This document shows positions 7,492 to 37,960 of a DNA stretch of 37,960 nucleotides, in pieces. This DNA comes from a virus (taxonomy: Duplodnaviria; Heunggongvirae; Uroviricota; Caudoviricetes). The notes under the pieces are model-generated. The model saw nothing but the letters and a program-made list of their open reading frames with translations, did not search any database and had not been told where the DNA came from. The stretch lies in IMG/VR virus record IMGVR_UViG_2588253749_000006, one strand, 5' to 3'. Each line of letters opens with the position of its first letter. Position 1 is the first letter of the stretch. The translations under genes and the position numbers were made by a program.

Positions 7492-7800
7492 TTACAAACG
7501 ACTACCTGAAATAACACGTTGGTTGATTTCGTTAATGCGATCCTGTGCACGTGCCATCTCGTTACTGTGGGCCATGGCGATCTGCAGCAACTGGATGCCT
7601 GGTGCGAAACGCCCGTTTTCCAGTTTCAGGGCTAGTCCCTCTTCGATAAGGGTATTGAGTGCTCGATTGATGTTCGCCGGGGACTCATCTAGGGCTGATG
7701 CCAGTTCACCGTTAGAAACACCGTTCAGAGAGTGACCGCGTAGAGCTTTGAGTACACGTAGGATGCGGGTCCCGGAACTGGAGATATTTACTTTACTCAT
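7492..7800 (-). CDS. winged-HTH DNA-binding protein (IclR-like N-terminal HTH only)
   Basis: Internal Met MSKVNISS of track ORF 7492..7863; GTRILRVLKAL ... GELASALDESPANINRALNTLIEEGLA. Confidence 0.45.
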   Translation of the reverse strand: MSKVNISSSGTRILRVLKALRGHSLNGVSNGELASALDESPANINRALNTLIEEGLALKLENGRFAPGIQLLQIAMAHSNEMARAQDRINEINQRVISGSRL

Positions 7801-7852
7801 GTCACATTTCCATTTTTGCAATATGTGATAACCTGTTGCATATATGGAAAAT

Positions 7853-8041
7853 TTATGCCGCATTTGACGTGGGTTTTAATCCCAGCTTTACGGCAATTTC
7901 ATGGGCTTTGCCGTAACGAGCTTTGGTCTGTCCATTGAGAACACGATAGACCTCATTGCGGCTGTAGCCGTGTTCTTCGGCCCAGCGGGTAAACGTGATA
8001 CCACGCTGACGGAAGAGAGTTTTAACTTGTTCGGAAGTCAT
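7853..8041 (-). CDS. Ner-like small DNA-binding regulator
   Basis: 62 aa; GITFTRWAEEHGYSRNEVYRVL ... HEIAVKLGLKP resembles the Ner/Nlp fold; first gene of the leftward operon, divergent from the repressor. Confidence 0.5.
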   Translation of the reverse strand: MTSEQVKTLFRQRGITFTRWAEEHGYSRNEVYRVLNGQTKARYGKAHEIAVKLGLKPTSNAA

Positions 8042-8130
8042 TGTTGTCTCCTTTGTTGATGCAATGATGTTTGTTTTATATGTGATAGATTATGAGAACT
8101 ATTGTTCTCATTGTCAATGAGGTTTATGTG
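8040..8130. promoter_or_regulatory. divergent early/repressor control region with operator-like palindrome
   Basis: Short AT-rich gap between divergent ner-like and repressor genes; perfect inverted repeat TGAGAACTATTGTTCTCA at about 8093..8110. Confidence 0.4.
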
Positions 8131-8553
8131 AATTTTGATTCTCTTTGCGCGTCGCGGTTCAAAGCTGAGCGTTCGCGGTTATCACTCAAGCAGGCTGAAG
8201 TAGCAGCCCTTTGTGGCGTTTCAAGAGAAATGTGGGGGAAATATGAACGAGGGGTTGCAGTTCCCGGAGGTGAGTTACTTGCAGCCTTTGCAAGAATTGG
8301 GGCCAACGTACAGTTCATTCTTACTGGGGAATCATCAGGTATAACTTTATCACGTGATGAAATGGAGTTACTTCAGCACTACCGGCAAGCACCGTTACAA
8401 GTCAAAGGTTCAGTTTTGTCGGCATTGACGACTGGCTCCTCCAGAGAACGGGCGGAACAGGTTATTCATGGAGATGTTCTGGGGAATGTTATCAAAGGTA
8501 ACGTAACCATAGGAACAGGTGGAATAATGAACAAAAATACAAAGAGAAAATGA
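8092..8553 (+). CDS. XRE-family HTH repressor (immunity repressor candidate)
   Basis: HTH LSLKQAEVAALCGVSREMWGKYERG; divergent from the ner-like gene; true start may be the GTG near 8128 because the annotated ATG overlaps a palindrome. Confidence 0.65.
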   Translation: MRTIVLIVNEVYVNFDSLCASRFKAERSRLSLKQAEVAALCGVSREMWGKYERGVAVPGGELLAAFARIGANVQFILTGESSGITLSRDEMELLQHYRQAPLQVKGSVLSALTTGSSRERAEQVIHGDVLGNVIKGNVTIGTGGIMNKNTKRK

Positions 8554-9536
8554 GTAAAGAGAAGCAAACAGTTAACGGAGATGTGGGTAACGTTGTCAGC
8601 GGTGATGTTACCATTCATAACTATTCTGCTGACATACTTCCCTCTGCCCAGCAACCAATTTCGTTGCTGCAAAAACGCGATTTACACAGATTGATGGATG
8701 AATTGGTTGATCTGGGGGAAAGTAAGCGCGAACTATGGATGACGATCCACACGAAACTTAATACCAAAACAGTTAATGAAATGACTGCGGCTGATTATCA
8801 TGGTGCGGTTGAGATCCTCCAGAGATATGCACAACAGATCCAGAATATGAAGGACTGTAATCTTCTGGTCAGCAAAATAATGGTGCTTACTGACCCTAGG
8901 TATCGTCTTGACCGTGACAGATACTGTCTGAAGCATTTCGGTACAACCCATCTTAAAGGCCTGGACAAAGAGCAGTTGCAGGCTGTGTTTGGTTATTTTG
9001 ATGATCTGCTGAATATTCGTGATGAGAGTAAAACTCTATCACCTCCATCGGACAGCGGGGCAAAATCAGTCGCGACTGTACCAACCAGAAGCCGGAAGCC
9101 TCATGTAGTAGTGTTGGGGGGAGCGTTAGTTCTTGTCGCAATATTTTTCGTGGGAATGATTGTGTTCGCTGGTAAATGGGGAAATGCTAAAGCAGTAGCA
9201 TCTACTGAAACCAGCGTTTTTAACATTAAAACCAACGACAAAATAATAGAAGATTCCATCCCAGCATTACGCAGCATGTTTCCAGGGTTAAATAAGTACT
9301 CAGATGATTTCCATTCGGTTTCAAGCTACAAGCAAAAATCGGGCTGGCATACCCTTAAATTCACGGTGTCTACACAGGCAATAATACCTGAATCTTATGG
9401 TGTTAAAGGGAAAACTTGTTACATCAACATAAACCCCGATGGTCGTTATGCCCGTGTTTTGACCGCCCCATGTAGAGCTCTATTACTTGACCAACAAAAC
9501 ACTCCAGATAGTAAATATCGTTATATTTTGAAATAG
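8550..9536 (+). CDS. unknown single-pass membrane protein, translationally coupled to the repressor
   Basis: 328 aa; ATGA start/stop overlap with the repressor gene; central hydrophobic segment VVVLGGALVLVAIFFVGMIVFAG; AT-rich. Confidence 0.6.
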   Translation: MSKEKQTVNGDVGNVVSGDVTIHNYSADILPSAQQPISLLQKRDLHRLMDELVDLGESKRELWMTIHTKLNTKTVNEMTAADYHGAVEILQRYAQQIQNMKDCNLLVSKIMVLTDPRYRLDRDRYCLKHFGTTHLKGLDKEQLQAVFGYFDDLLNIRDESKTLSPPSDSGAKSVATVPTRSRKPHVVVLGGALVLVAIFFVGMIVFAGKWGNAKAVASTETSVFNIKTNDKIIEDSIPALRSMFPGLNKYSDDFHSVSSYKQKSGWHTLKFTVSTQAIIPESYGVKGKTCYININPDGRYARVLTAPCRALLLDQQNTPDSKYRYILK

Positions 9537-9556
9537 AAAATAACTGCGAGGCTATT

Positions 9557-10048
9557 ATGGGGCTAATTAAACGATATAGAACAGATTATCCGAACCAAGT
9601 ACATCAACTTTCTGTTGCTGTTTCAAAGCATTATTATGCGGGAGTTGATGGATTGCTTAAGTACCAGAAAAAACCATTTGATATAAAACTTAGCAATGCA
9701 AGTAAAACTGGAAAAGATCATTTACTAGTCTATTCGTTACGCGATCACTACAGTGGTTTGTTTTATATAGAATTGGCATTTCTTTCTACACCACAACCTA
9801 TAACAGCTTTTTTGGGAAGGGCATGGAGGCCAAAGGAAGATAACGTGTTACAGGGTCTTCCTGATATGCTGATGATCCCCAAAACTGTAGAAGATGAGTT
9901 CCCTAACGTATGTAATGCCGTTTATAACCAAGGAGTTGATCTTTTAAAAGTAACCAGCGGTTTTCAGAGTGGAGGGCTTATCGCCATACGAGCGGTAGAG
10001 GAAGATCTTAAATTCTACACAAATACTCCTATAGCACGAGTTTCGTGA
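9557..10048 (+). CDS. unknown protein, second gene of the repressor-linked cassette
   Basis: 163-aa ORF 20 bp after the previous gene; AT-rich; no recognisable motif. Confidence 0.5.
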   Translation: MGLIKRYRTDYPNQVHQLSVAVSKHYYAGVDGLLKYQKKPFDIKLSNASKTGKDHLLVYSLRDHYSGLFYIELAFLSTPQPITAFLGRAWRPKEDNVLQGLPDMLMIPKTVEDEFPNVCNAVYNQGVDLLKVTSGFQSGGLIAIRAVEEDLKFYTNTPIARVS

Positions 10049-10339
10049 GGTTGCGGTTAAAACATGCAGATACAATGCTAATGATATCGCCCGAACCAAT
10101 AAAGAAACAAAGCAAGAGATGTGGTTACGAAACGTCGGTCAGATAGATATACCTTCTCCAGATTTTTGAAACCTGAAATCACGGTGTCGACGGTTCATTC
10201 TGACGCATCATTTATTCTCGTCAGTTGCCTCATATTCGTGCGTGCTAGGAAACATCGGCCAGAATATGTCTGGCATGGCGGCGTTTACAACCAATCCATG
10301 GAGCGATGGGGAATGTCTGCATTTTCATAATCTGTAACC

Positions 10340-10470
10340 CTTTTATAATTATAAAAAATATGGCAGGCTAGTCTGGTCTCGCGAGACTGACTGAACCTCG
10401 GTCGGCTCACAGTGCATTCCTGTGGGGCGATGACCAGCCCGGAGTTCGGGTACCGGGCTGGTCGTTCTTT
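10340..10470 (+). ncRNA. candidate small structured RNA (promoter-like TATAAT, two hairpins, T-rich tail)
   Basis: Palindromic TTTTATAATTATAAAA, then GTCTCGCGAGAC palindrome, then an 11-bp perfect stem GACCAGCCCGG/CCGGGCTGGTC followed by GTCGTTCTTT, inside a 530-bp gap. Confidence 0.2.
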
Positions 10471-10578
10471 CACTGTCAGAGTTCAGAGTGAAGTTTTGAG
10501 ATACATGATTTCTATTAACGCGATTTACTGGATGCATTACCTACGTGCAGTGTTTGTTCGATAAGGATTGTTTTCTGA

Positions 10579-11154
10579 ATGGGAACGTATTACACACTTG
10601 ATTCCGCTAGTCGTCTGCCTTCGCCTTGTCATGTAATTACCGGAAAATACGAGCCTGAAATGCCAGAACTGGCCGCTTTTCTTCATCAGATGTATCCCAA
10701 TGGCCTTTCGAGTCACGGGTATAACTATCTCTATAACCCCGGCCCTAAAATGGAAGATGACAGTGGAATCAGCAGAAGTCTGCTGGTCGGTCTGGTGTTT
10801 GAGTTAGTTCGCCGTAGCCATTTTCCTGATAAACCTTCCCGCTATCAGTCACTGTTTGCCTGTCAGCATCTGAGTGAAGTCAGGAAGTTCAGGGAATTAC
10901 TGGCTGATGAGAGAGGCGAAGACGAAATAAGAACGGCACCGATATATGAAGTCATCACAAATGAGCAGGTGCATCGCGGAGATATGAGGTTATTGAACAG
11001 TGATTGCCCGGTGCTGGAACTGTATCACCGTGCTTGGCTTTACTGGTCGGGTGAAGCAGCCCCAGTTAAGACTGGTGAGGACGAACCGTTCTGGGAACTG
11101 CTGATTCCGCTTCCAGTATTCGTTGGTCGAAGGATAACTGAATCGCAGGATTAG
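10579..11154 (+). CDS. unknown protein (accessory region)
   Basis: 191-aa ORF with an upstream AAGGA. Confidence 0.5.
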   Translation: MGTYYTLDSASRLPSPCHVITGKYEPEMPELAAFLHQMYPNGLSSHGYNYLYNPGPKMEDDSGISRSLLVGLVFELVRRSHFPDKPSRYQSLFACQHLSEVRKFRELLADERGEDEIRTAPIYEVITNEQVHRGDMRLLNSDCPVLELYHRAWLYWSGEAAPVKTGEDEPFWELLIPLPVFVGRRITESQD

Positions 11155-11389
11155 GTGCGGTTTTATATCGTGATGTCGCCGCCACATCGCCAATTAGCAT
11201 GACGTTGTTTTCTCCGCTGGCGAAATGACTTCTTCTCTCTTCAAGTGCAACCAGAACGTTTTTCAGCTCTATAATCGCTTCGGTTGGACAACATGCATCC
11301 AAGCTTAGCGTGTAAGTTTTATTCTGCTCTCCGATTCTGCTCCCAAAGAGGAACCCTTTTTTAATACCAGACTGTTTCGGTTCAGTCAT
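11066..11389 (-). CDS. unknown protein convergent with and overlapping the 10579..11154 gene
   Basis: Internal Met MTEPKQ with GGAGG RBS; 3' end overlaps the convergent gene by about 89 bp. Confidence 0.4.
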   Translation of the reverse strand: MTEPKQSGIKKGFLFGSRIGEQNKTYTLSLDACCPTEAIIELKNVLVALEERRSHFASGENNVMLIGDVAATSRYKTAPNPAIQLSFDQRILEAESAVPRTVRPHQS

Positions 11390-11454
11390 TGTGCTTGCCT
11401 CCCCTATGTTTTGTGTGCGACCATTCTGGTCGCTTCCCTCTGCGAACACTTATA

Positions 11455-11480
11455 ACGCGCTTTAAAATCCGTATCCCGCC
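11455..11480 (+). promoter_or_regulatory. candidate late-promoter activator site upstream of the lysis cassette
   Basis: GCTTTAAAATCCGT about 45-60 bp upstream of the first lysis gene; the same motif recurs near 24826 and 32932. Confidence 0.4.
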
Positions 11481-11519
11481 ACATTTGTGATGCTGTCTCC
11501 ACCAAACAAGGAGACACAC

Positions 11520-11870
11520 ATGAAAAGCCTGAAAAAATTCATTCCCCCTGTTAAAAAACCTCGCCTCAGCGGCTGGCTGCTGACCTCAGTGCTGTTGCTG
11601 GGCACCATCGCTCTGGTCTCGCCACAGCAGTTGCCTGTTGTGATCTACAAGCTGGCACTCATCACGCTGGCAGCAGTGCTGGGTTACTGGCTTGACCGTT
11701 CGCTCTTCCCCAAAGCCCGTCCCGGTCAGTACCTGAAACATGAAGACAGGCTGATGGCTGAAGGGCGTTTCCCTGTGCAGACCGGCCTTCACCTTGTATT
11801 TTCTGCTGCGTTAATCCGCCGTGCACTGATTGTTGCAGCGGTCTGTCTGGCTGTGGCAACAGGACTGTGA
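11520..11870 (+). CDS. holin-like membrane protein
   Basis: ATG with AAGGAG RBS inside track ORF 11487..11870; about 116 aa with two to three hydrophobic segments; first gene before the endolysin. Confidence 0.45.
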   Translation: MKSLKKFIPPVKKPRLSGWLLTSVLLLGTIALVSPQQLPVVIYKLALITLAAVLGYWLDRSLFPKARPGQYLKHEDRLMAEGRFPVQTGLHLVFSAALIRRALIVAAVCLAVATGL

Positions 11871-30104: not shown

Positions 30105-30613
30105 CTGGTGTCACCCGCCAGGTCGGTACGGTCAGTGCCGTTGATGCCGACAGGGTTCAGGCCCGCGTTCGTCTGCCTGAATGCGATAATCTGCGCACAA
30201 ACTGGCTTAACGTGCTGCAGCGCAATACCCAGGATAACAAGGATTACTGGCTCCCTGACGTGGGGGAGCAGGTTGAGGTGCTGCTCGATGCCAACGGCGA
30301 GGATGGTGTTATTCTGGGCGCGGTGTACTCAGACGTCGATAAACCGCCGTTCGGTGATAAAAACGTCCGGGGCACGAAGTACGCTGATGGCGCGGAGTTC
30401 AGTTATGACCGCGCGACCCATACGCTGACGGTCAAAGGAGGTATCGAGCATGTGGTGATCGAGGTTGCAGTGGGTATTAGTCTGAAAGGGAAAACCATTG
30501 ATTTGACAGCTGACACTATCATGGTGAACGGCAATCTTGAAATCAAAGGGAGTACCCATGCGACTGGTAACATATTTGCAGATGGACAGAATTCCAATCA
30601 TCACTCTCACTAA
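30101..30613 (+). CDS. baseplate spike/assembly protein V-like (Mu gp45-like)
   Basis: 170 aa; N-terminal GTVSAVDADRVQARVRLPE ... typical of gpV. Confidence 0.7.
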   Translation: MTGVTRQVGTVSAVDADRVQARVRLPECDNLRTNWLNVLQRNTQDNKDYWLPDVGEQVEVLLDANGEDGVILGAVYSDVDKPPFGDKNVRGTKYADGAEFSYDRATHTLTVKGGIEHVVIEVAVGISLKGKTIDLTADTIMVNGNLEIKGSTHATGNIFADGQNSNHHSH

Positions 30614-30694
30614 TTTTTCAAGTATGTGACTCCATTTCCTCTCCCGCGGATATGATAGAATTTTTTAATTAACACTAATTTGGCGGGGACTTAA

Positions 30695-31411
30695 ATGCGG
30701 TTATCAAGATCCTTATGTAAAGTAGTTGGCGATGTCATTGCTAACTCAGGCTCTCATGCAGCTTTAGATACGTTATTTCTTACTTCGGGAGCACCAGGAA
30801 ACCCTCCGGCAGGATCTCATAGTACAAAATGGAAAGACTGGTTATTTCTTGCAGGGCAAGATCCAGATACAGATAGTCTGGCAGTTCTGGGCGGAGTAAT
30901 TGAGGAGTTTATGGATTTACCTCCAAAAGAAGGTACTCCCGAATATGCAGAATGGAAGGAAAAACGAGACAGAATTGAAGCTGTGTTACAAGAGAATGGA
31001 CTTAGATATTATCGTTTTGGTCGAGTGTTGCCTGAAGGCCACATCCCGTCACACAATATGGATTACCCAGAGACCATAATTACTTATCAACAGCCAGTAA
31101 TGCCAGAAAAAGTTGAGAACTTACTGGAAAGGCTGGTCAAAGGCTTACAGCGAGCAATGCATCCACTTACTCATAGGCGAAAAGGAAGCCAGTCATTATC
31201 TTTTAGCAATGAATATGACGTGCAAGACCTTCTCCATGCATTGCTCAGACCATGGGTTCAGGACATCCGCCCAGAAGAGTTTACTCCAAGTTACGCTGGT
31301 TCAAGTACTCGAATGGATTTTTTGTTACCTGCGCATAAATTAGTACTGGAAACCAAAATTGTTCGTGATCGTTCTCATGCAAAGAAAATCGGCGATGAAC
31401 TTATTATCGAT
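30695..31411 (+). pseudogene. 5' part of an AT-rich cargo gene interrupted by IS2; C-terminal region resembles a PD-(D/E)xK nuclease core
   Basis: The track ORF's stop is the first three bases (TAG) of the IS2 left end; reading frame resumes at 32748; candidate catalytic D in RMDFLL and ExK in LVLETK. Confidence 0.6.
31407..31411. repeat. IS2 target-site duplication, left copy (TCGAT)
   Basis: Identical 5-mer abuts both IS2 ends. Confidence 0.85.
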
Positions 31412-31502
31412 TAGACTGGCCCCCTGAATCTCCAGACAACCAGTATCACTTAAATAAGTGATAGTCTTAATACTAGTTTTTAGACTAGTCATTGGAGAAC
31501 AG

Positions 31503-31868: not shown

Positions 31869-32731
31869 GCTTAGTCAGCCGTTGTCTCCGGGTGTCGCGT
31901 GCGCAGTTGCACGTCATTCTCAGACGAACCGATGACTGGATGGATGGCCGCCGCAGTCGTCACACTGATGATACGGATGTGCTTCTCCGTATACACCATG
32001 TTATCGGAGAGCTGCCCACGTATGGTTATCGTCGGGTATGGGCGCTGCTTCGCAGACAGGCAGAACTTGATGGTATGCCTGCGATCAATGCCAAACGTGT
32101 TTACCGGATCATGCGCCAGAATGCGCTGTTGCTTGAGCGAAAACCTGCTGTACCGCCATCGAAACGGGCACATACAGGCAGAGTGGCCGTGAAAGAAAGC
32201 AATCAGCGATGGTGCTCTGACGGGTTCGAGTTCTGCTGTGATAACGGAGAGAGACTGCGTGTCACGTTCGCGCTGGACTGCTGTGATCGTGAGGCACTGC
32301 ACTGGGCGGTGACTACCGGCGGCTTCAACAGTGAAACAGTACAGGACGTCATGCTGGGAGCGGTGGAACGCCGCTTCGGCAACGATCTTCCGTCGTCTCC
32401 AGTGGAGTGGCTGACGGATAATGGTTCATGCTACCGGGCTAATGAAACACGCCAGTTCGCCCGGATGTTGGGACTTGAACCGAAGAACACGGCGGTGCGG
32501 AGTCCGGAGAGTAACGGAATAGCAGAGAGCTTCGTGAAAACGATAAAGCGTGACTACATCAGTATCATGCCCAAACCAGACGGGTTAACGGCAGCAAAGA
32601 ACCTTGCAGAGGCGTTCGAGCATTATAACGAATGGCATCCGCATAGTGCGCTGGGTTATCGCTCGCCACGGGAATATCTGCGGCAGCGGGCTTGTAATGG
32701 GTTAAGTGATAACAGATGTCTGGAAATATAG
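31826..32731 (+). CDS. insD: IS2 OrfB (InsD) transposase catalytic part
   Basis: 301 aa recognised as IS2 InsD; overlaps InsC in the -1 frame at the A6G site. Confidence 0.9.
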
Positions 32732-32742
32732 GGGCAAATCCA

Positions 32743-32747
32743 TCGAT
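32743..32747. repeat. IS2 target-site duplication, right copy (TCGAT)
   Basis: Identical to 31407..31411. Confidence 0.85.
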
Positions 32748-32906
32748 ATAGAGCATTATCGTCGGCACTCTGATTGCAAAAATCTCTGGTGTGTCATCTA
32801 CGATCCGAACCAGCTTATTACTAATTCTGAGGGGCTGAAATCTGATCTTGAGGGGAAGAGAGTTTCTAAAGACGGAGAACTTATCGTCAAGGTTTTCGTA
32901 ATTTAA
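32748..32906 (+). pseudogene. 3' part of the IS2-interrupted cargo gene
   Basis: In frame with 30695..31411 once IS2 and one TCGAT copy are removed (about 291 aa reconstructed). Confidence 0.55.
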
Positions 32907-32929
32907 CAAACGTATCAATAACTCCTTTT

Positions 32930-32952
32930 TAAATCCCTTTAATATCGTTCTT
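32930..32952 (+). promoter_or_regulatory. candidate late-promoter activator site upstream of the baseplate operon
   Basis: CCTTTAATATCGT about 30-45 bp upstream of the gpW-like start; the same motif recurs near 11457 and 24826. Confidence 0.35.
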
Positions 32953-32977
32953 TTCTTACTGGGGCAATACTGCCCCC

Positions 32978-33325
32978 ATGAAAACGACCTCAGTATTCTG
33001 GCAACCGGCTCTGCAGGCTCCCGGCGAAATCGTCCGGGGGCTGGATGATATCCAGCAGTCCATCCAGATCATCCTGCGGACTCCCCGCGGCAGCGACCCG
33101 CATCGCCCAGAGTTCGGCAGCAATCTGCACCTTTATATCGACTGGCCTGTCGACCGGGCCATTCCGCATGTGGTTCGCGAATCCGTCGATGCCATCAGGC
33201 GCTGGGAACCCCGCTGCCAGCTTATGTCGGTTAAACCCGCCGTCGACGGCGAACATCTTACGCTCCGGGTGAGCTGGAAAGGCTCAGACGGACAACCCCG
33301 TACTCAGGAACTGCTATGGCGCTGA
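32978..33325 (+). CDS. baseplate wedge protein (GPW/gp25-like)
   Basis: 115 aa; GLDDIQQSIQIILRTPRGSDPHRPEFGSNLHLYID resembles the GPW/gp25 family. Confidence 0.7.
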   Translation: MKTTSVFWQPALQAPGEIVRGLDDIQQSIQIILRTPRGSDPHRPEFGSNLHLYIDWPVDRAIPHVVRESVDAIRRWEPRCQLMSVKPAVDGEHLTLRVSWKGSDGQPRTQELLWR

Positions 33326-34992: not shown

Positions 34993-35937
34993 ATGGCAAA
35001 TCTACCTGAAACCCCACAGTGGGAAGACGGCATCTACCAGATTGAGGTCTCTGACCCCGTTCTGGGCGGGCCTGACGGAATTTCTAACCGTCAGGGTAAA
35101 CAACTGGCCAGCCGCACGCTGTACCTGAAGCAACAGGTTGAAAAAGGCGGGGCTGACCTTGCGAAACACATCGCGGCAGCAGACCCGCATGCCCAGTATG
35201 CACCGAAAGCCAGTCCGGCATTCACCGGCACACCAACAGCACCTACACCTGCAAATGGCGATAACAGCAAAAAGCTGGCGACGACGGAGTTTGTGGCCAA
35301 AGCACTTGCGGCGCTTGCAGGCAGCGCCCCTGAGACACTGGATACGCTTAAAGAGCTGGCTGACGCTCTCGGTAATGATCCAAACTTTGCGACTACGGTA
35401 CTGAACAAGCTGGCGGAAAAGCTGGCTAAAGACCAGAACGGCGCAGATATTCCTGATCCTGCGCTGTTTGTCAAAAACCTTGGTTTGGGAGAAGGTACTC
35501 CAGCTATTGGCGTTCCGTTCTTCTGGCCCTCCGCGGCAATGCCAAATACTGTAATCGACAGCTGGTCCAGTATGGTGTTTTTGAAGTTCAACGGGGCGAA
35601 ATTTTCTGCCACTGATTACCCTGTGCTGGCGAAAGTGTTTCCTTCGCTGGTATTACCTGAAGCCCGCGGTGATTTCATTCGTATCTGGGATGACGGGCGA
35701 GGTGTAGACGGTGGTCGCGAATTATTAAGCTGGCAGGCAGCTACAAACTTTTCTCAGTTTGCCGGGAATATAGGCGATGGTGCGGGCCACGCAATTAATT
35801 TTCATGATGGTATCGCCGGAAATCAGCCAGGATTTTCACGATTTAATTTCACCAGTAACTCTGTGGGTGATGGTGTGAATTTTGTTGCCGTCAGACCGCG
35901 AAATATTGCATTTAACTTTCTGGTGAGGGCTAAATGA
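34993..35937 (+). CDS. tail fibre protein; constant N-terminal part plus currently expressed variable C-terminal part
   Basis: 314 aa; the recombination site lies in-frame at codons 159-167, so everything downstream is inside the invertible segment. Confidence 0.75.
   Translation: MANLPETPQWEDGIYQIEVSDPVLGGPDGISNRQGKQLASRTLYLKQQVEKGGADLAKHIAAADPHAQYAPKASPAFTGTPTAPTPANGDNSKKLATTEFVAKALAALAGSAPETLDTLKELADALGNDPNFATTVLNKLAEKLAKDQNGADIPDPALFVKNLGLGEGTPAIGVPFFWPSAAMPNTVIDSWSSMVFLKFNGAKFSATDYPVLAKVFPSLVLPEARGDFIRIWDDGRGVDGGRELLSWQAATNFSQFAGNIGDGAGHAINFHDGIAGNQPGFSRFNFTSNSVGDGVNFVAVRPRNIAFNFLVRAK
35468..35493. repeat. left invertase crossover site (gix/hix-like), inside the tail fibre gene
   Basis: TTGTCAAAAACCTTGGTTTGGGAGAA; 21 of 26 positions identical to the reverse complement of the right site, with a perfect 14-bp core TTGGTTTGGGAGAA. 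Confidence 0.6.
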
Positions 35938-36530
35938 TGACCCCAATTTTTGATGAAAATGGACTGGCTACAGTGCCGGGCGATATGCGTTGTTTTTATT
36001 ATGATGCAGTAACGTATGAATATACGGGCTGGTCTGATGAATATATTAATACTGGTGTAAGTATGCCCGCCTGTTCCACTGGTATTGACCCGGGCGAAAA
36101 CATTCCGGGAAAAGTGGCAGTATTTACGGGTAAGGGATGGAGCCATGAAGAAGACCATCGCAATGAGACTGTTTACTCAACAGAAAATGGTGCAACTGTT
36201 ACAGTGGATTATATCGGTGCCATCAAAGACGGTTATGTCACGCTTTCACCGTTAACGCCATACGATAAATGGGATGGTGAGAAATGGGTGACAGATTCTG
36301 AGGCACAACACGGTGCCGCAGTAGAAGCGGCAGAAGCACAGCGCCAGTCACTTATTGATGCAGCAATGGCTTCCATTAGTCTGATTCAGCTGAAATTACG
36401 GGCCGGGCGGAAGCTGATGCAGGCAGAGACCTCCCGACTTAACACTGTGCTGGATTACATTGACGCGGTGACGGCAACAGATACCAGCACCGCGCCGGAT
36501 GTCATCTGGCCTGAACTGCCGGAGGAGTAG
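35934..36530 (+). CDS. tail fibre assembly chaperone (Tfa/U-like), expressed orientation
   Basis: 198 aa directly after the fibre gene; C-terminal DYIDAVTATDTSTAPDVIWPELP. Confidence 0.7.
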   Translation: MMTPIFDENGLATVPGDMRCFYYDAVTYEYTGWSDEYINTGVSMPACSTGIDPGENIPGKVAVFTGKGWSHEEDHRNETVYSTENGATVTVDYIGAIKDGYVTLSPLTPYDKWDGEKWVTDSEAQHGAAVEAAEAQRQSLIDAAMASISLIQLKLRAGRKLMQAETSRLNTVLDYIDAVTATDTSTAPDVIWPELPEE

Positions 36531-36942
36531 GCCATTCAATATCTGGCGCACTGGAAGTATCGACCAGCTCCAGTGCGTCCAGATAATCCAGCCACAAATT
36601 ATATTGCGCCAGTTCCTCACCTTTCAGACGACCAATAGCCGCTTTACCAGCCCATTGTTTACTGTTCATATAATCGTTGGCCTGATTAATCAATTGCTGC
36701 TTTTTCAGTTCGGCTGCAGCAATCTGTTCCTCATGTGTTGGTGGTGGAATTTCAGACCATGCAGGAAAACCATTTTCTCCAGCGATACGGATTTTTCCTT
36801 TCGGCGGTAATCCGGAAAACTCAATATACACTTGCTCATCAACTTCAACAGCATCATCTGGCCATGAGTCAGCTTGCGTGTAATCCTCTTTCATCTCCAA
36901 GGGATAGAAAGAGTTTGTAGTCGCGGAATATATGTAATTCAT
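36502..36942 (-). CDS. alternative tail fibre assembly chaperone (U'-like), silent orientation
   Basis: 146 aa convergent with and overlapping the Tfa gene; C-terminal DYLDALELVDTSSAPDIEWPTPP. Confidence 0.7.
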   Translation of the reverse strand: MNYIYSATTNSFYPLEMKEDYTQADSWPDDAVEVDEQVYIEFSGLPPKGKIRIAGENGFPAWSEIPPPTHEEQIAAAELKKQQLINQANDYMNSKQWAGKAAIGRLKGEELAQYNLWLDYLDALELVDTSSAPDIEWPTPPAVQAR

Positions 36943-36968
36943 TTTTCACTCCATAAAGTTAAAAGAAA

Positions 36969-37316
36969 TTAACACCCTAATGCGAAAAATGAAGCACCGA
37001 TACCGGGTACGCCTGCTCTGGAAATAAATTTCACCGGGTCCTGGTTATAACCGGCACAAGCTATATAGCCAACATTTGCACTGCCGGGAGTGTAATCCTG
37101 AGTTGCAAATACCCGCAGACATCTATTCGGAAATGCAATCGGAAAATAGGTTACTGTGTCCTGAGACGTCAGCGAAACATCAATTGGCCCCCATTGAATA
37201 ATTAAACCGGATGGCAATTTTTGATATCCAGTACCTGAAACAGAAAGCGTGAAGCTACCCATATCAGGTATCTGATTCGTCCCTGTCCCCACATTCCTTT
37301 TTGCCGCTTCTCCCAA
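36969..37316 (-). CDS. alternative tail fibre variable C-terminal cassette (Sv'-like), promoterless
   Basis: 115-aa frame opening at the right crossover site, in the same codon phase (GGT TTG GGA GAA) as the fibre gene at the left site. Confidence 0.6.
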
Positions 37317-37333
37317 ACCAACGTTTTCGTCTT
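37308..37333. repeat. right invertase crossover site (gix/hix-like)
   Basis: TTCTCCCAAACCAACGTTTTCGTCTT, about 55 bp upstream of the invertase start. Confidence 0.6.
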
Positions 37334-37387
37334 AACTCCCACCTATACCAGCTATGTATTTTTAACAAAACAAAGAGGATATTTTTC

Positions 37388-37960
37388 ATGCAAATTGGCT
37401 ACATTCGTGTGTCAACAAATGACCAGAATACAGATTTACAACGAAACGCACTGAACTGCGCAGGATGTGAACTGATTTTTGAGGATAAAATCAGCGGAAC
37501 AAAGTCAGCCCGACCGGGATTGAAAAAGCTGCTCAGAACGTTATCAGAAGGAGATACGCTCGTTGTCTGGAAGCTGGATAGGCTGGGCAGAAGCATGAAA
37601 CACCTTATCACTCTTATTGAGGAACTGCGGGGAAAAGGGGGTAATTTCCGTAGTCTTACAGACAGCATTGATACGTCAACACCCATGGGACGTTTCTTTT
37701 TTCACGTCATGGGGGCTTTAGCGGAAATGGAGCGCGAATTAATAGTTGAACGAACACTGGCCGGACTTGAGGCAGCACGTGCACAGGGGCGTATTGGCGG
37801 ACGCCGTCCGAAACTGACAAAAGAGCAACATGAACAAATAGCAAGGCTGATCAAAAATGGCTATAGCAGGAAACAGTTGGCAATTATTTACGATATCGGT
37901 ATATCGACGATTTATCGTTATCACCCTGTAGAGGAACTCCAAACTCAAGCTAAGTTGTAA
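37388..37960 (+). CDS. serine DNA invertase (Gin/Pin/Hin/Cin family)
   Basis: 190 aa from the ATG with AAGAGGA RBS inside track ORF 37301..37960; MQIGYIRVSTNDQNTDLQRNAL ... closely resembles e14 Pin / Mu Gin as I recall them. Confidence 0.9.
   Translation: MQIGYIRVSTNDQNTDLQRNALNCAGCELIFEDKISGTKSARPGLKKLLRTLSEGDTLVVWKLDRLGRSMKHLITLIEELRGKGGNFRSLTDSIDTSTPMGRFFFHVMGALAEMERELIVERTLAGLEAARAQGRIGGRRPKLTKEQHEQIARLIKNGYSRKQLAIIYDIGISTIYRYHPVEELQTQAKL

Follow-up and report, generated by a model that had tools for sequence, protein, structure and literature searches.

Phage lambda carries its rexA and rexB genes on the same strand as the immunity repressor gene and directly after it, and their products form an exclusion system of a membrane and a soluble protein. 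Exclusion lipoproteins and membrane morons of other phages, such as T5 Llp, HK022/phi80 Cor and HK97 gp15, are also well known. We analysed a locus of similar layout in a BcepMu-like (Mu-like) transposable prophage of E. coli, within a 37,960-nucleotide stretch of DNA referred to here as the window. As in lambda, a membrane protein and then a soluble protein are encoded on the same strand right after a repressor-like gene, and expression in the lysogen is expected. A first-pass annotation had taken these two genes, ORF1 and ORF2, for a cassette translationally coupled to the repressor and for a candidate exclusion or abortive-infection module. The locus has the following features.

8085..8118, no strand assigned: operator-like inverted repeat (arms 8085-8099 and 8104-8118), its function assigned from position only
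8092..8553, plus strand: HTH (XRE-type) repressor-like gene, 153 aa (HTH_31 4.7e-7, HTH_3 8.5e-5; synteny)
8550..9536, plus strand: ORF1, 328 aa, bitopic inner-membrane protein (PHROG 10002), overlapping the repressor stop by ATGA
9557..10048, plus strand: ORF2 as read in the window, 163 aa, the N-terminal 80% of a dead DDE-transposase-core protein

The inverted repeat overlaps both the annotated repressor start and a sigma-70-like early promoter on the minus strand (TTGACA-17-CATAAT, 8117..8089). The repressor gene is divergent from the early transposition operon, in synteny with the BcepMu-like early region, and its product gave sub-threshold matches to the NCBIfam models of RstR- and DicA-type repressors. 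These features suggest that the 8092..8553 product acts as a repressor. The position of the two genes directly after a divergently transcribed HTH repressor was as originally described, as were the ATGA overlap of ORF1 with the repressor stop (ORFs 8092-8553 and 8550-9536), the single central transmembrane segment of ORF1 (one strong hydrophobic stretch, aa ~186-207) and the AT-richness of both genes (GC 0.426 for ORF1 and 0.386 for ORF2, compared to 0.537 in the early and 0.566 in the late operon). ORF2 had been described as a soluble protein of 163 aa starting 20 bp after ORF1; the gap and the lack of a hydrophobic segment were borne out, whereas the length reflects truncation of a protein that has 203 aa in 27 genomes. 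Coupling to the repressor applies to ORF1, through the overlap, but not to ORF2, which has its own Shine-Dalgarno (GAGG) within the 20-nt gap. A promoter and terminator scan of 7800-11600, in which shuffled sequences gave more matches and which was used only for the early-promoter-like site, found no terminator-like site between ORF1 and ORF2. On the positional basis of the overlap, the short gap and the lack of a terminator-like site, the three genes are probably carried on one transcript.

ORF1 and ORF2 are not inherited together. The repressor and ORF1 occur jointly in 127 E. coli genomes, 27 of which carry ORF2; in the other 100 or so ORF2 is absent and other genes take its place. The word "cassette" is therefore incorrect, and variable cargo describes ORF2 but not ORF1, which travels with the repressor. 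These counts (27 vs 127 genomes), together with the occurrence of ORF2 as a solo gene without a conserved partner in 34 loci and of ORF1 mostly without ORF2, speak against a single superinfection-exclusion or abortive-infection system expressed from the repressor operon in the manner of lambda RexB/RexA. Such a system would fit the post-repressor position, the AT-richness, the membrane-plus-soluble pair, the lack of a terminator-like site between the genes, the order repressor-ORF1-ORF2 retained in a Serratia quinivorans prophage and the toxin or defence genes found beside some ORF2 homologues. However, ORF1 with its one transmembrane helix is no polytopic channel, the window copy of ORF2 carries a frameshift, and PADLOC-DB v2 yielded no match for ORF1, for ORF2 (163 or 203 aa), for four distant ORF2 relatives, for a distant Flk_N relative or for a free lipoprotein form of the ORF1 periplasmic domain. 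Neither protein had a functional match in PADLOC, Pfam, NCBIfam or PHROG, the PHROG families being of unknown function, and homology to RexA or RexB was not detected. The pair further differs from rexA/rexB in sequence and fold, in the motif that single-pass ORF1 copies from the repressor and in the derivation of ORF2 from a transposase core. We thus regard a RexAB-like two-gene system as very improbable; an exclusion role for ORF1 or ORF2 is possible. The best explanation is that ORF1 and ORF2 are two unrelated units that have only a probable transcript in common. We are highly confident that they are independent units with the architectures and homologies described below, and evenly divided on the fuller account in which ORF1 would be a partner of the repressor and ORF2 a mobile moron with a dead transposase core.

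The surroundings of ORF2 have the following features.

9548..10247, no strand assigned: ORF2 insertion module; homology to ORF2-less relatives ends at 9547 and resumes at 10248
10248..10327, minus strand: remnant of the 5' end of a dam methylase gene that is whole at this place in relatives
10041..10043, plus strand: TTT run with a 1-nt insertion that leads to a premature stop at 10046-10048 (TT in 27/27 complete E. coli genomes with the gene)
10044..10169, plus strand: the 40 final ORF2 codons (REVAVKTCRYN...PSPDF*), displaced but intact in the +1 frame

The dam methylase remnant marks the ORF2 slot as a recombination hotspot. ORF2 homologues are strongly conserved solo genes in variable regions across distant phyla, and the mean column identity of 46% across phyla indicates strong constraint. 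Clustering of the neighbours in 34 loci and a Pfam scan of 111 neighbours revealed no conserved partner, and the neighbourhoods contained no conserved element structure. An rve domain was present in 2 of the 111 neighbours, a Mu-like transposase was mostly not nearby, and ORF2 was found in only 4 viral contigs. Some homologues adjoin toxin or defence genes, an anecdotal observation and not a statistical enrichment.

The copies in the 27 complete E. coli genomes encode the 203-aa protein, and the codons displaced in the window hold the family-invariant K185 and W189. The ORF2 copy in the window may be inactive. To the alternative that it is a dead gene or carries a sequencing error, so that it contributes nothing and one extra T creates the 163-aa protein as an artefact, we give slightly less than an even chance. 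The insertion set against 27/27 genome copies and the loss of K185 and W189 argue for it; the strong constraint on the family and the remainder of the gene, which is 100% identical to the intact copies, argue against it. Given this identity, a very recent change or an error in base calling is likelier than decay.

Both products had been said to match no recognisable family. This holds for functional annotation, and ORF2 belongs to an unannotated family that has no entry in Pfam, NCBIfam or PHROG, but ORF1 matches PHROG 10002 and Flk_N and ORF2 matches the DDE transposase core. Searches of the ORF1 and ORF2 sequences against PDB chains returned chance-level matches only (fucosyltransferase, Bcl-xL, E 0.08-0.5) and the ORF2 family profile had no match among PDB sequences, so that the integrase core was revealed by fold comparison only: ORF2 contains an RNase-H-like catalytic-core fold. 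Alignment of the ORF2 family with residues 148-347 of the window transposase (rve domain 152-282) using hhalign gave 96% at E 4e-9, and the ORF2 HMM scored 35-71 bits on five Mu-like transposases. The resident transposase scored 35 bits and distant ones 60-70 bits, indicating that ORF2 is not tuned to the resident enzyme. An origin by recent duplication of the resident transposase was rejected because of this higher score on distant enzymes. The DDE triad is missing throughout the 122-member family: the first D is replaced by hydrophobic or small residues, the second by Pro (117/122) and the E by Arg/Gly/Ile or Gly/Ser, the E. coli protein having S19, P108 and I142/G139 at these columns. For this reason we do not class ORF2 as a transposase. 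It appears to be catalytically dead, a conclusion drawn from two alignments that differ by three columns for the Glu position. D143, beside that position, is conserved in 107 of the 122 members, the E. coli protein not among them. The non-catalytic motifs PN.V(H/W)Q and DH.SG..Y.E are kept. The 203-aa protein is core only, with all DNA-binding domains missing. Clear homology to a Mu-family core protein present in all relatives had been named as evidence against the first-pass annotation; half of this was found, in an unexpected form, since ORF2 is clearly homologous to the transposase but is a degenerate extra paralogue that not all relatives carry.

The best reading of ORF2 is that of a non-catalytic, transposase-derived moron. 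Unlike the DDE transposase and retroviral integrase cores (MuA, TnsB, IstA, HIV/RSV integrase), it lacks the triad, the DNA-binding domains and the C-terminal regulatory domains, and it is a solo gene of about 200 aa in total without terminal repeats or transposon context. It resembles Tn5 Inh and the P-element KP repressor, which also derive from transposases, miss part of the enzyme and could interfere with transposition. However, these two are made from the transposase gene and retain the active site (Inh) or the DNA-binding domain (KP), whereas ORF2 is a distant paralogue with its own gene, widespread outside transposons. It is conceivable, though we consider it unlikely, that ORF2 acts by binding and not cutting; the most plausible way would be to occupy a protein or DNA interface of the transposase type and thereby to hinder the transposition-based replication of incoming elements. 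A sharper version, likewise unlikely in our judgement, makes ORF2 a dominant-negative inhibitor of superinfecting transposable phages or of the resident prophage, whose transposase oligomers it would poison, in functional parallel to the Tn5 inhibitor protein. The specific homology to the BcepMu-type catalytic core with its non-catalytic motifs kept, the loss of catalytic residues and DNA-binding domains, and the position downstream of the repressor in a transposable phage speak for this version. The low score to the resident transposase (only 35 bits vs 60-70) and the family's distribution, with most homologues lacking a nearby Mu-like transposase in their genome or locus and only 4 viral contigs, point the other way, and ORF2 has no recruitment domain and no obvious route to the transpososome without DNA-binding domains. 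Candidate roles of the family include transposition interference or nucleic-acid binding. To our knowledge, domesticated, inactivated transposases are familiar in eukaryotes and rarely described in bacteria.

ORF1 behaves differently. Its start lies between -4 and +3 nt from the repressor stop in every examined relative with the same repressor type (~36 pairs in two clades). Besides the 127 E. coli genomes, the pair was found in Yersinia, Serratia and Salmonella-type prophages and in a second BcepMu-like clade, where the two genes are adjacent in 26/26 pairs; in most lineages the ORF1 relatives are without ORF2. ORF1 travels with the repressor and shares a motif with it, which makes it a part of the immunity region that is conserved in the lineage, and not variable cargo. 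The parts of ORF1 and the shared motif are as follows.

8461..8511, plus strand: repressor C-terminal tail motif VIHGDVLGNVIKGNVTI, aa 124-140 (local alignment against ORF1)
8568..8615, plus strand: ORF1 N-terminal head motif TVNGDVGNVVSGDVTI, aa 7-22 (tail/head alignments)
8652..9029, plus strand: cytoplasmic helical Flk_N-like domain, aa ~35-160 (NCBIfam, Pfam, hhalign, AF2)
9105..9170, plus strand: single transmembrane helix, aa ~186-207, with basic residues on its N-terminal side (KD19 = 2.9; AF2)
9210..9533, plus strand: periplasmic alpha/beta domain, aa ~221-328, with the conserved Cys pair C290/C308 (pLDDT >90)

The cytoplasmic domain is related to that of Flk (Fluke/RflH). ORF1 matched the NCBIfam Flk model PRK10715 over aa 19-147 (E 1.6e-11) with 44 bits, below the equivalog cutoff of 353, and PF27202 Flk_N was detected on ORF1 homologues. 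Alignment of the ORF1 family with residues 25-147 of E. coli K-12 Flk by hhalign gave 96.4% at 22% identity, and the AF2 model shows helices in this domain (pLDDT 90+ for aa 40-100). Both proteins have a cytoplasmic Flk_N helical domain anchored to the inner membrane by one transmembrane helix, and most phage relatives are, like Flk, tail-anchored. In contrast to Flk, the phage proteins bear an N-terminal beta-motif and their genes are tied to the repressor gene, whereas flk is a chromosomal locus next to pdxB; ORF1 also has the added periplasmic domain. The score far below the cutoff and the central transmembrane helix followed by a 120-aa periplasmic domain make ORF1 a domain relative and not a Flk orthologue. 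The chromosomal flagellar regulator may itself be a domesticated relative. Flk, anchored in the membrane, inhibits the flagellar secretion switch, and by this homology ORF1 might bind the flagellar export gate and alter flagellar assembly in the lysogen, a lysogenic conversion unrelated to the repressor. We consider this highly improbable given the remote homology (22% identity; 44 bits vs 353), the tie to repressors across clades and the absence of the head motif from Flk.

The periplasmic domain, in which C290 and C308 are near-invariant, is encoded as a separate lipoprotein in sister phages. The KP12 and 'short-variant' 177-aa lipoproteins match PHROG 10002 positions 215-321 (E 5e-14 and 2e-12), and L064 carries the domain as an extra copy. 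These forms raise the prospect that ORF1 alone is a superinfection-exclusion protein that would block adsorption or DNA entry at the envelope through this domain, with the motif common to repressor and ORF1 serving only co-regulation or stability. Predicted lysogen expression and the Cys pair, which is typical of periplasmic proteins, agree with this role, and the conservation of ORF1 equally fits a conserved exclusion function. Like T5 Llp, Cor and gp15, the domain is a small periplasm-facing prophage product, with a lipobox in the split form of relatives; unlike them, it is fused to a repressor-tied cytoplasmic Flk_N module, and no homology or fold match to them was detectable. We hold this role to be a minority possibility. 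Our best reading is that the repressor has in ORF1 a conserved partner anchored in the membrane.

The repressor and ORF1 have a motif in common. When the whole repressor was aligned with the whole of ORF1, the best local alignment fell at the tail motif (score 55; shuffles 29.8+/-4.5; z 5.7). The tail motif is kept in all relatives of the same repressor type. The head motif is its copy, of Gly/Asn(Gln)/Val type (~16-25 aa), and is the most conserved stretch of ORF1, with G10, G13, N14, V15, V16, S17, G18, V20 and I22 invariant. The motif pair was found in 7/7 lineages and in 26/26 pairs of the second clade; the E. coli type reads GDVxGNV and the second-clade type FHGxVGQ. In the AF2 monomer model the head motif has a pLDDT of about 40, and confidence is low for aa 1-30. 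A search of the INPHARED phage set with the repressor tail and the N-terminal half of ORF1 (tblastn) returned no match, and a distant Flk_N relative matched only Escherichia phage 520873, weakly; with these near-empty results, deposited, annotated phages are uninformative on ORF1. The motif data tentatively suggest, with somewhat less than an even chance, that ORF1 contacts the repressor through the common motif. The two copies would pair with each other, and ORF1 would thereby hold or modulate a fraction of the repressor at the inner membrane. Through the periplasmic domain, which is fused in ORF1 and a separate lipoprotein elsewhere, the lysogeny switch, or an entry block, would then be tied to envelope events. 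Alternatively, a third party, for instance a protease or a chaperone, could recognise the motif. Joining of repressor and ORF1 by a -1 frameshift on the AGA-AAA-TGA overlap was rejected as a mechanism of general validity, since in the second clade 1-3 nt separate the stop from the start and no slippery site is shared.

Motifs shared between adjacent gene products are known from amyloid signalling pairs, such as fungal HET-S/NWD2 and the bacterial BASS motifs of Bell-domain/NLR pairs (bioRxiv 10.1101/2020.01.06.895854). As in those pairs, a short G/N/Q/V/I-rich motif of ~16-25 aa occurs C-terminally in the product of the upstream gene and again N-terminally in that of its collinear neighbour, the intergenic distance is tiny, and the motif is disordered in the monomer model. 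The likeness is known from sequence and not from fibrils, and the E. coli motif is shorter (~16 aa). The partners also differ: amyloid pairs join an NLR with NB-ARC/NACHT and repeats to a Bell/HeLo effector, whereas here one partner is an HTH_31 repressor and the other a Flk_N membrane protein, encoded by a phage of a unicellular proteobacterium. That the repressor tail and the ORF1 head form a prion-like (cross-beta) signalling pair inside the lysogeny switch is, in our estimate, quite unlikely. In such a mechanism, the periplasmic domain or lipoprotein would sense an envelope event that clusters the membrane-anchored Flk_N protein; its N-terminal motifs would take a beta-arch fold and template the identical repressor motif. 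The repressor would be drawn from solution and the transposable prophage derepressed or, in the reverse case, immunity would be locked. If true, amyloid-type signalling would for the first time be extended beyond NLR/death-domain pairs and to a unicellular proteobacterium, and prophage induction would have a new route.

For ORF1 as a conserved repressor partner, pairing of the motif copies would already form a new connection between the lysogeny switch and the cell envelope, and could explain the induction or protection of BcepMu-like prophages. In the literature on BcepMu, inactive phage transposases, repressors with amyloid, and Mu-like exclusion, neither ORF1 nor ORF2 was found described, and we found no published account of induction control in BcepMu-like prophages of this group. 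Widespread BcepMu-like phages of enterobacteria and other proteobacteria link the repressor gene to a membrane-anchored Flk_N protein with the repressor tail motif, and clinical E. coli, ETEC and ST131-type genomes among them, commonly carry prophages with the repressor-ORF1 pair.

The 37,960-bp window represents a transposable prophage of Escherichia coli that is BcepMu-like (Bcepmuvirus-type). Across 8000-11500, it matches chromosomal prophages of 27 complete E. coli genomes, including B7A and TW10573, at 99.8-100% identity. RefSeq annotation of the E. coli copies places Mor, Gam, an ExeA-like ATPase, a 589-aa transposase, DUF3102, an IclR-like HTH protein and a BcepMu_gp16-family protein in a minus-strand early operon. 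This operon is followed by a divergent HTH gene (the repressor), the ORF1/ORF2 region, a holin, an SLT lysin and Mu-type head and tail genes. PhiKM and KP12, two related phages, share this backbone and differ in the genes that separate the early region from the holin. The genes at the centre of this analysis are:

8092-8553, plus strand: repressor, a 153-aa HTH_31/HTH_3 protein (open reading frame with domain match)
8550-9536, plus strand: ORF1, 328 aa, its start overlapping the repressor stop via ATGA
9557-10048, plus strand: ORF2, 163 aa as read in the window, 20 nt after ORF1

The coordinates, the ATGA overlap and the 20-bp gap agree with the first-pass annotation, as do the presence of one hydrophobic segment in ORF1 (aa ~186-207) and none in ORF2. 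Both genes were confirmed to be AT-rich (GC of 0.426 and 0.386, respectively, compared to 0.54-0.57 for the phage backbone); GC was also low in the repressor (0.448) and in the gene after ORF2 (0.484). The proposed translational coupling to the repressor holds for ORF1 through the ATGA overlap but not for ORF2, which is preceded by a GAGG Shine-Dalgarno sequence in the 20-nt gap. At 8085-8118, the annotated repressor ATG (8092) is overlapped by an inverted repeat of 15 nt and by a minus-strand promoter close to consensus (TTGACA-17-CATAAT). Because the repressor starts ~12 codons further downstream in relatives (V..K.I..RLKEERK), its translation may in fact begin at the GTG near 8128.

The first-pass annotation had proposed these adjacent, AT-rich genes as a two-gene cassette and a strong candidate for a superinfection-exclusion or abortive-infection module. 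A search with 8092-10170 matched 127 of 5,426 E. coli genomes, and ORF2 was covered in only 27 of them. In the remaining ~100 (94.8% identity), the match ended at window position ~9547, just past the ORF1 stop, and a different 193-aa gene (PHROG 12025) was present in place of ORF2. The repressor and ORF1 are retained in Yersinia, Serratia marcescens, Salmonella-type and other prophages, where ORF1 is followed by a 249-aa membrane protein, nothing, or a lipoprotein; among these non-E. coli relatives, an ORF2 homologue was present only in Serratia quinivorans-type prophages. Pairwise comparisons with relatives gave these mosaic boundaries:

8000-9547: segment common to the ORF2-less prophages
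9548-10247: ORF2 module
10248-10327, minus strand: remnant of the dam methylase 5' end (first ~80 nt)
10248-11452: segment common to KP12, including the DUF2441 gene

A whole dam gene stands at this position in KP12, PhiKM and the Yersinia and Serratia relatives, and the ORF2 module occupies the site of dam loss. Homology to all relatives picks up again at the holin. ORF1 and ORF2 are thus mutually independent genes and not a cassette, and a joint exclusion system is unlikely. Of the two, ORF2 is variable cargo, whereas ORF1 is conserved by lineage with the repressor. Collectively, the earlier interpretation of 8550-10048 is partly supported: the region holds a conserved membrane protein, the proposed partner of the repressor, with which it shares a duplicated tail/head motif, plus a member of an unannotated, dead transposase-core family.

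No family had been recognised for either gene, which stands for ORF2 as regards library matches but not for homology. Profile and structure-based searches related ORF1 to Flk_N and ORF2 to a dead Mu-type transposase core; fold searches with ORF1 gave no functional lead, and no description of either family was found in the searched libraries or literature. ORF1 belongs to PHROG 10002, a family without assigned function, and the NCBIfam model of the flagellar regulator Flk aligns through its N-terminal part with ORF1 aa 19-147 (E 1.6e-11) at 44 bits, far under the equivalog cutoff of 353. Pfam PF27202 (Flk_N) was found on ORF1 homologues, and the profile of the phage Flk_N family (alignment A5) matched residues 25-147 of E. 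coli K-12 Flk (flk, b2321; L097) with 96.4% probability. When 1.84 billion representatives were searched exhaustively by HMMER with ORF1 aa 1-188, only 48 clusters were returned, most of them 185-290-aa proteins with the N-terminal motif of ORF1, an Flk_N domain and a C-terminal TM anchor. Compared to A5, this N-terminal motif is absent from chromosomal K-12 Flk, which may be a domesticated relative of this phage immunity-region gene.

The AlphaFold model of ORF1 shows a poorly predicted N-terminus (residues 1-30, pLDDT ~40), a helical domain (aa ~35-160; pLDDT >90 for aa 40-100), the TM helix and a confident alpha/beta domain (aa 225-328) with a near-invariant Cys pair, C290 and C308. This C-terminal domain is also found on its own, as a lipobox-bearing lipoprotein of 177 aa, in KP12, where its gene stands after an unrelated repressor, and in a 'short' variant, in which a 197-aa Flk_N+TM protein precedes the separate lipoprotein. 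These lipoproteins match PHROG 10002 positions 215-321. Free lipoprotein genes were located in four compared loci (L064 5135-5662, L014 2295-2828, L003 4726-5259 and L066 4135-4665); L064 has one in addition to full-length ORF1. The two forms are related by fusion or fission, and this relationship locates the domain to the periplasm and the ORF1 N-terminus to the cytoplasm. That this domain acts in exclusion by itself is a reasonable rival explanation, albeit an unlikely one.

The most conserved stretch of ORF1 is its extreme N-terminus (the head), TVNGDVGNVVSGDVTI. The repressor C-terminus (the tail) reads VIHGDVLGNVIKGNVTI, followed by a Lys-rich end. The best local alignment of whole repressor against whole ORF1 is exactly tail against head, scoring 55 compared to 29.8+/-4.5 for shuffles; the E. 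coli tail scored 22-31 against foreign heads. The match recurs in seven lineages, always at the same positions (z 1.7 to 7.5). In a second BcepMu-like clade, with the same early synteny and transposases 55-59% identical, the upstream HTH gene ends 1-3 nt before the Flk_N gene or overlaps it by 4 nt in 26/26 pairs; tails there resemble QTFHGSVGQAVAGNVTNKSGVTFNVG and heads QDFHGGVGQAAAGDINNFGVSISLAG, with alignment scores of 36-67. No Flk_N gene is present in KP12, which has a different repressor type that lacks the tail motif. At L094 2884-4043, the repressor is likewise of a different type and lacks the tail motif; after 9 nt comes a 227-aa Flk_N protein whose N-terminal extension is a different, helical one and which retains just the second half of the head motif. 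The adjacency and shared motif across lineages make ORF1 a lineage-conserved component of the immunity region, tied to the repressor by translation and a duplicated motif.

Amyloid signalling pairs of Bell/NLR genes are defined by motif geometry (bioRxiv 10.1101/2020.01.06.895854). As in those pairs, the upstream C-terminal motif of repressor/ORF1 equals the downstream N-terminal motif, the motif is G/N/Q/V/I-rich, and the genes are collinear with a minimal gap. The partner proteins differ, and NLR-like and Bell-domain architectures are reported to be rare or absent in Proteobacteria (bioRxiv 10.1101/2020.01.06.895854). We treat the likeness as an analogy only. The repressor tail and ORF1 head would bind each other, part of the repressor pool would come under the control of membrane-anchored ORF1, and the periplasmic partner domain would report on the envelope. 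Flk, the only ORF1 relative studied, is a cytoplasmic protein anchored in the membrane, where it is reported to act through binding of another protein (PMC13344023).

ORF2 reads as 163 aa in the window but as 203 aa in all 27 E. coli genome copies, which have TT where the window has TTT (10041-10043). The last 40 codons, including the family-invariant K185 and W189, are intact in the +1 frame (10044-10169). The 163-aa form thus reflects a frameshift or a sequencing error: the additional T either arose by very recent mutation or was miscalled in the source record.

Searches of Pfam, NCBIfam, PHROG and PADLOC gave no match to the 203-aa ORF2. Its 224 homologues, ~200-230 aa long, come from metagenomes and genomes, and its structure model is confident (pLDDT 91.4). 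Its profile aligned residues 7-193 with 148-347 of the window transposase (96% probability, E 4e-9), whose rve domain spans 152-282. The family HMM scored 70.7 and 61.8 bits on full-length Mu-like transposases of other phyla, compared to 35.4 bits on the resident transposase. The closest active relatives are the full-length Mu-like transposases L044 2882-4621 (Zetaproteobacterium) and L045 7602-9281 (Bacteriovoracaceae MAG), which at 62-71 bits are closer to the family than the window's own transposase. ORF2 is an old family, not a recent duplicate of the resident transposase gene. The first catalytic Asp corresponds to column 19 (I/V/T/S/A/M), the second to P108 (Pro in 117/122 members) and the catalytic Glu to R142 (R99/G10/I7) or, in the hhalign register, G139. 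Because the core homology and the non-catalytic motifs PN.V[H/W]Q, DH.SG..Y.E and K/T...W are retained and the catalytic positions replaced, ORF2 is predicted to be a Mu-type transposase derivative that is reduced to the core and catalytically dead.

ORF2 homologues were found in 29 of ~185,000 species-level genomes, from Gammaproteobacteria, Bacteroidota, Acidobacteriota, Desulfobacterota, Chlamydiota, Ignavibacteriota, a clostridial-type anaerobe (Acidaminobacter) and WOR-3, and in only four viral contigs, two being this phage. Their neighbours are mixed (ParE, HipA, RhuM, HEPN, Fic, restriction-modification, HamA, an OLD-type ATPase with NERD and Hen1/PNKP, SymE with an integrase, and IS and conjugation genes), and no neighbour family recurred in >3 of 34 loci. 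By this distribution, ORF2 acts alone and moves among variable regions, a pattern that would fit a role in defence, counter-defence or addiction. ORF2 would bind its target instead of catalysing a reaction; our most specific guess, to which we give a low probability, is that it interferes with transposase-type complexes.

The DUF2441 protein (PHROG 5663; 10579-11154), with ~90% DNA identity to KP12, is a further moron in the same slot; a promoter-like site (10322-10349) and a weak terminator-like hairpin (10443-10459) lie ahead of its gene. Between DUF2441 and the holin, a 127-aa antisense ORF (11066-11449, minus strand) matched no family and goes unannotated in RefSeq copies; it is unlikely to be a gene. 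Other stretches of low GC (0.42-0.49), at 30500-31500, 32500-33000 and 35500-37960 in the tail-fibre and right-end region, may hold additional acquired genes.
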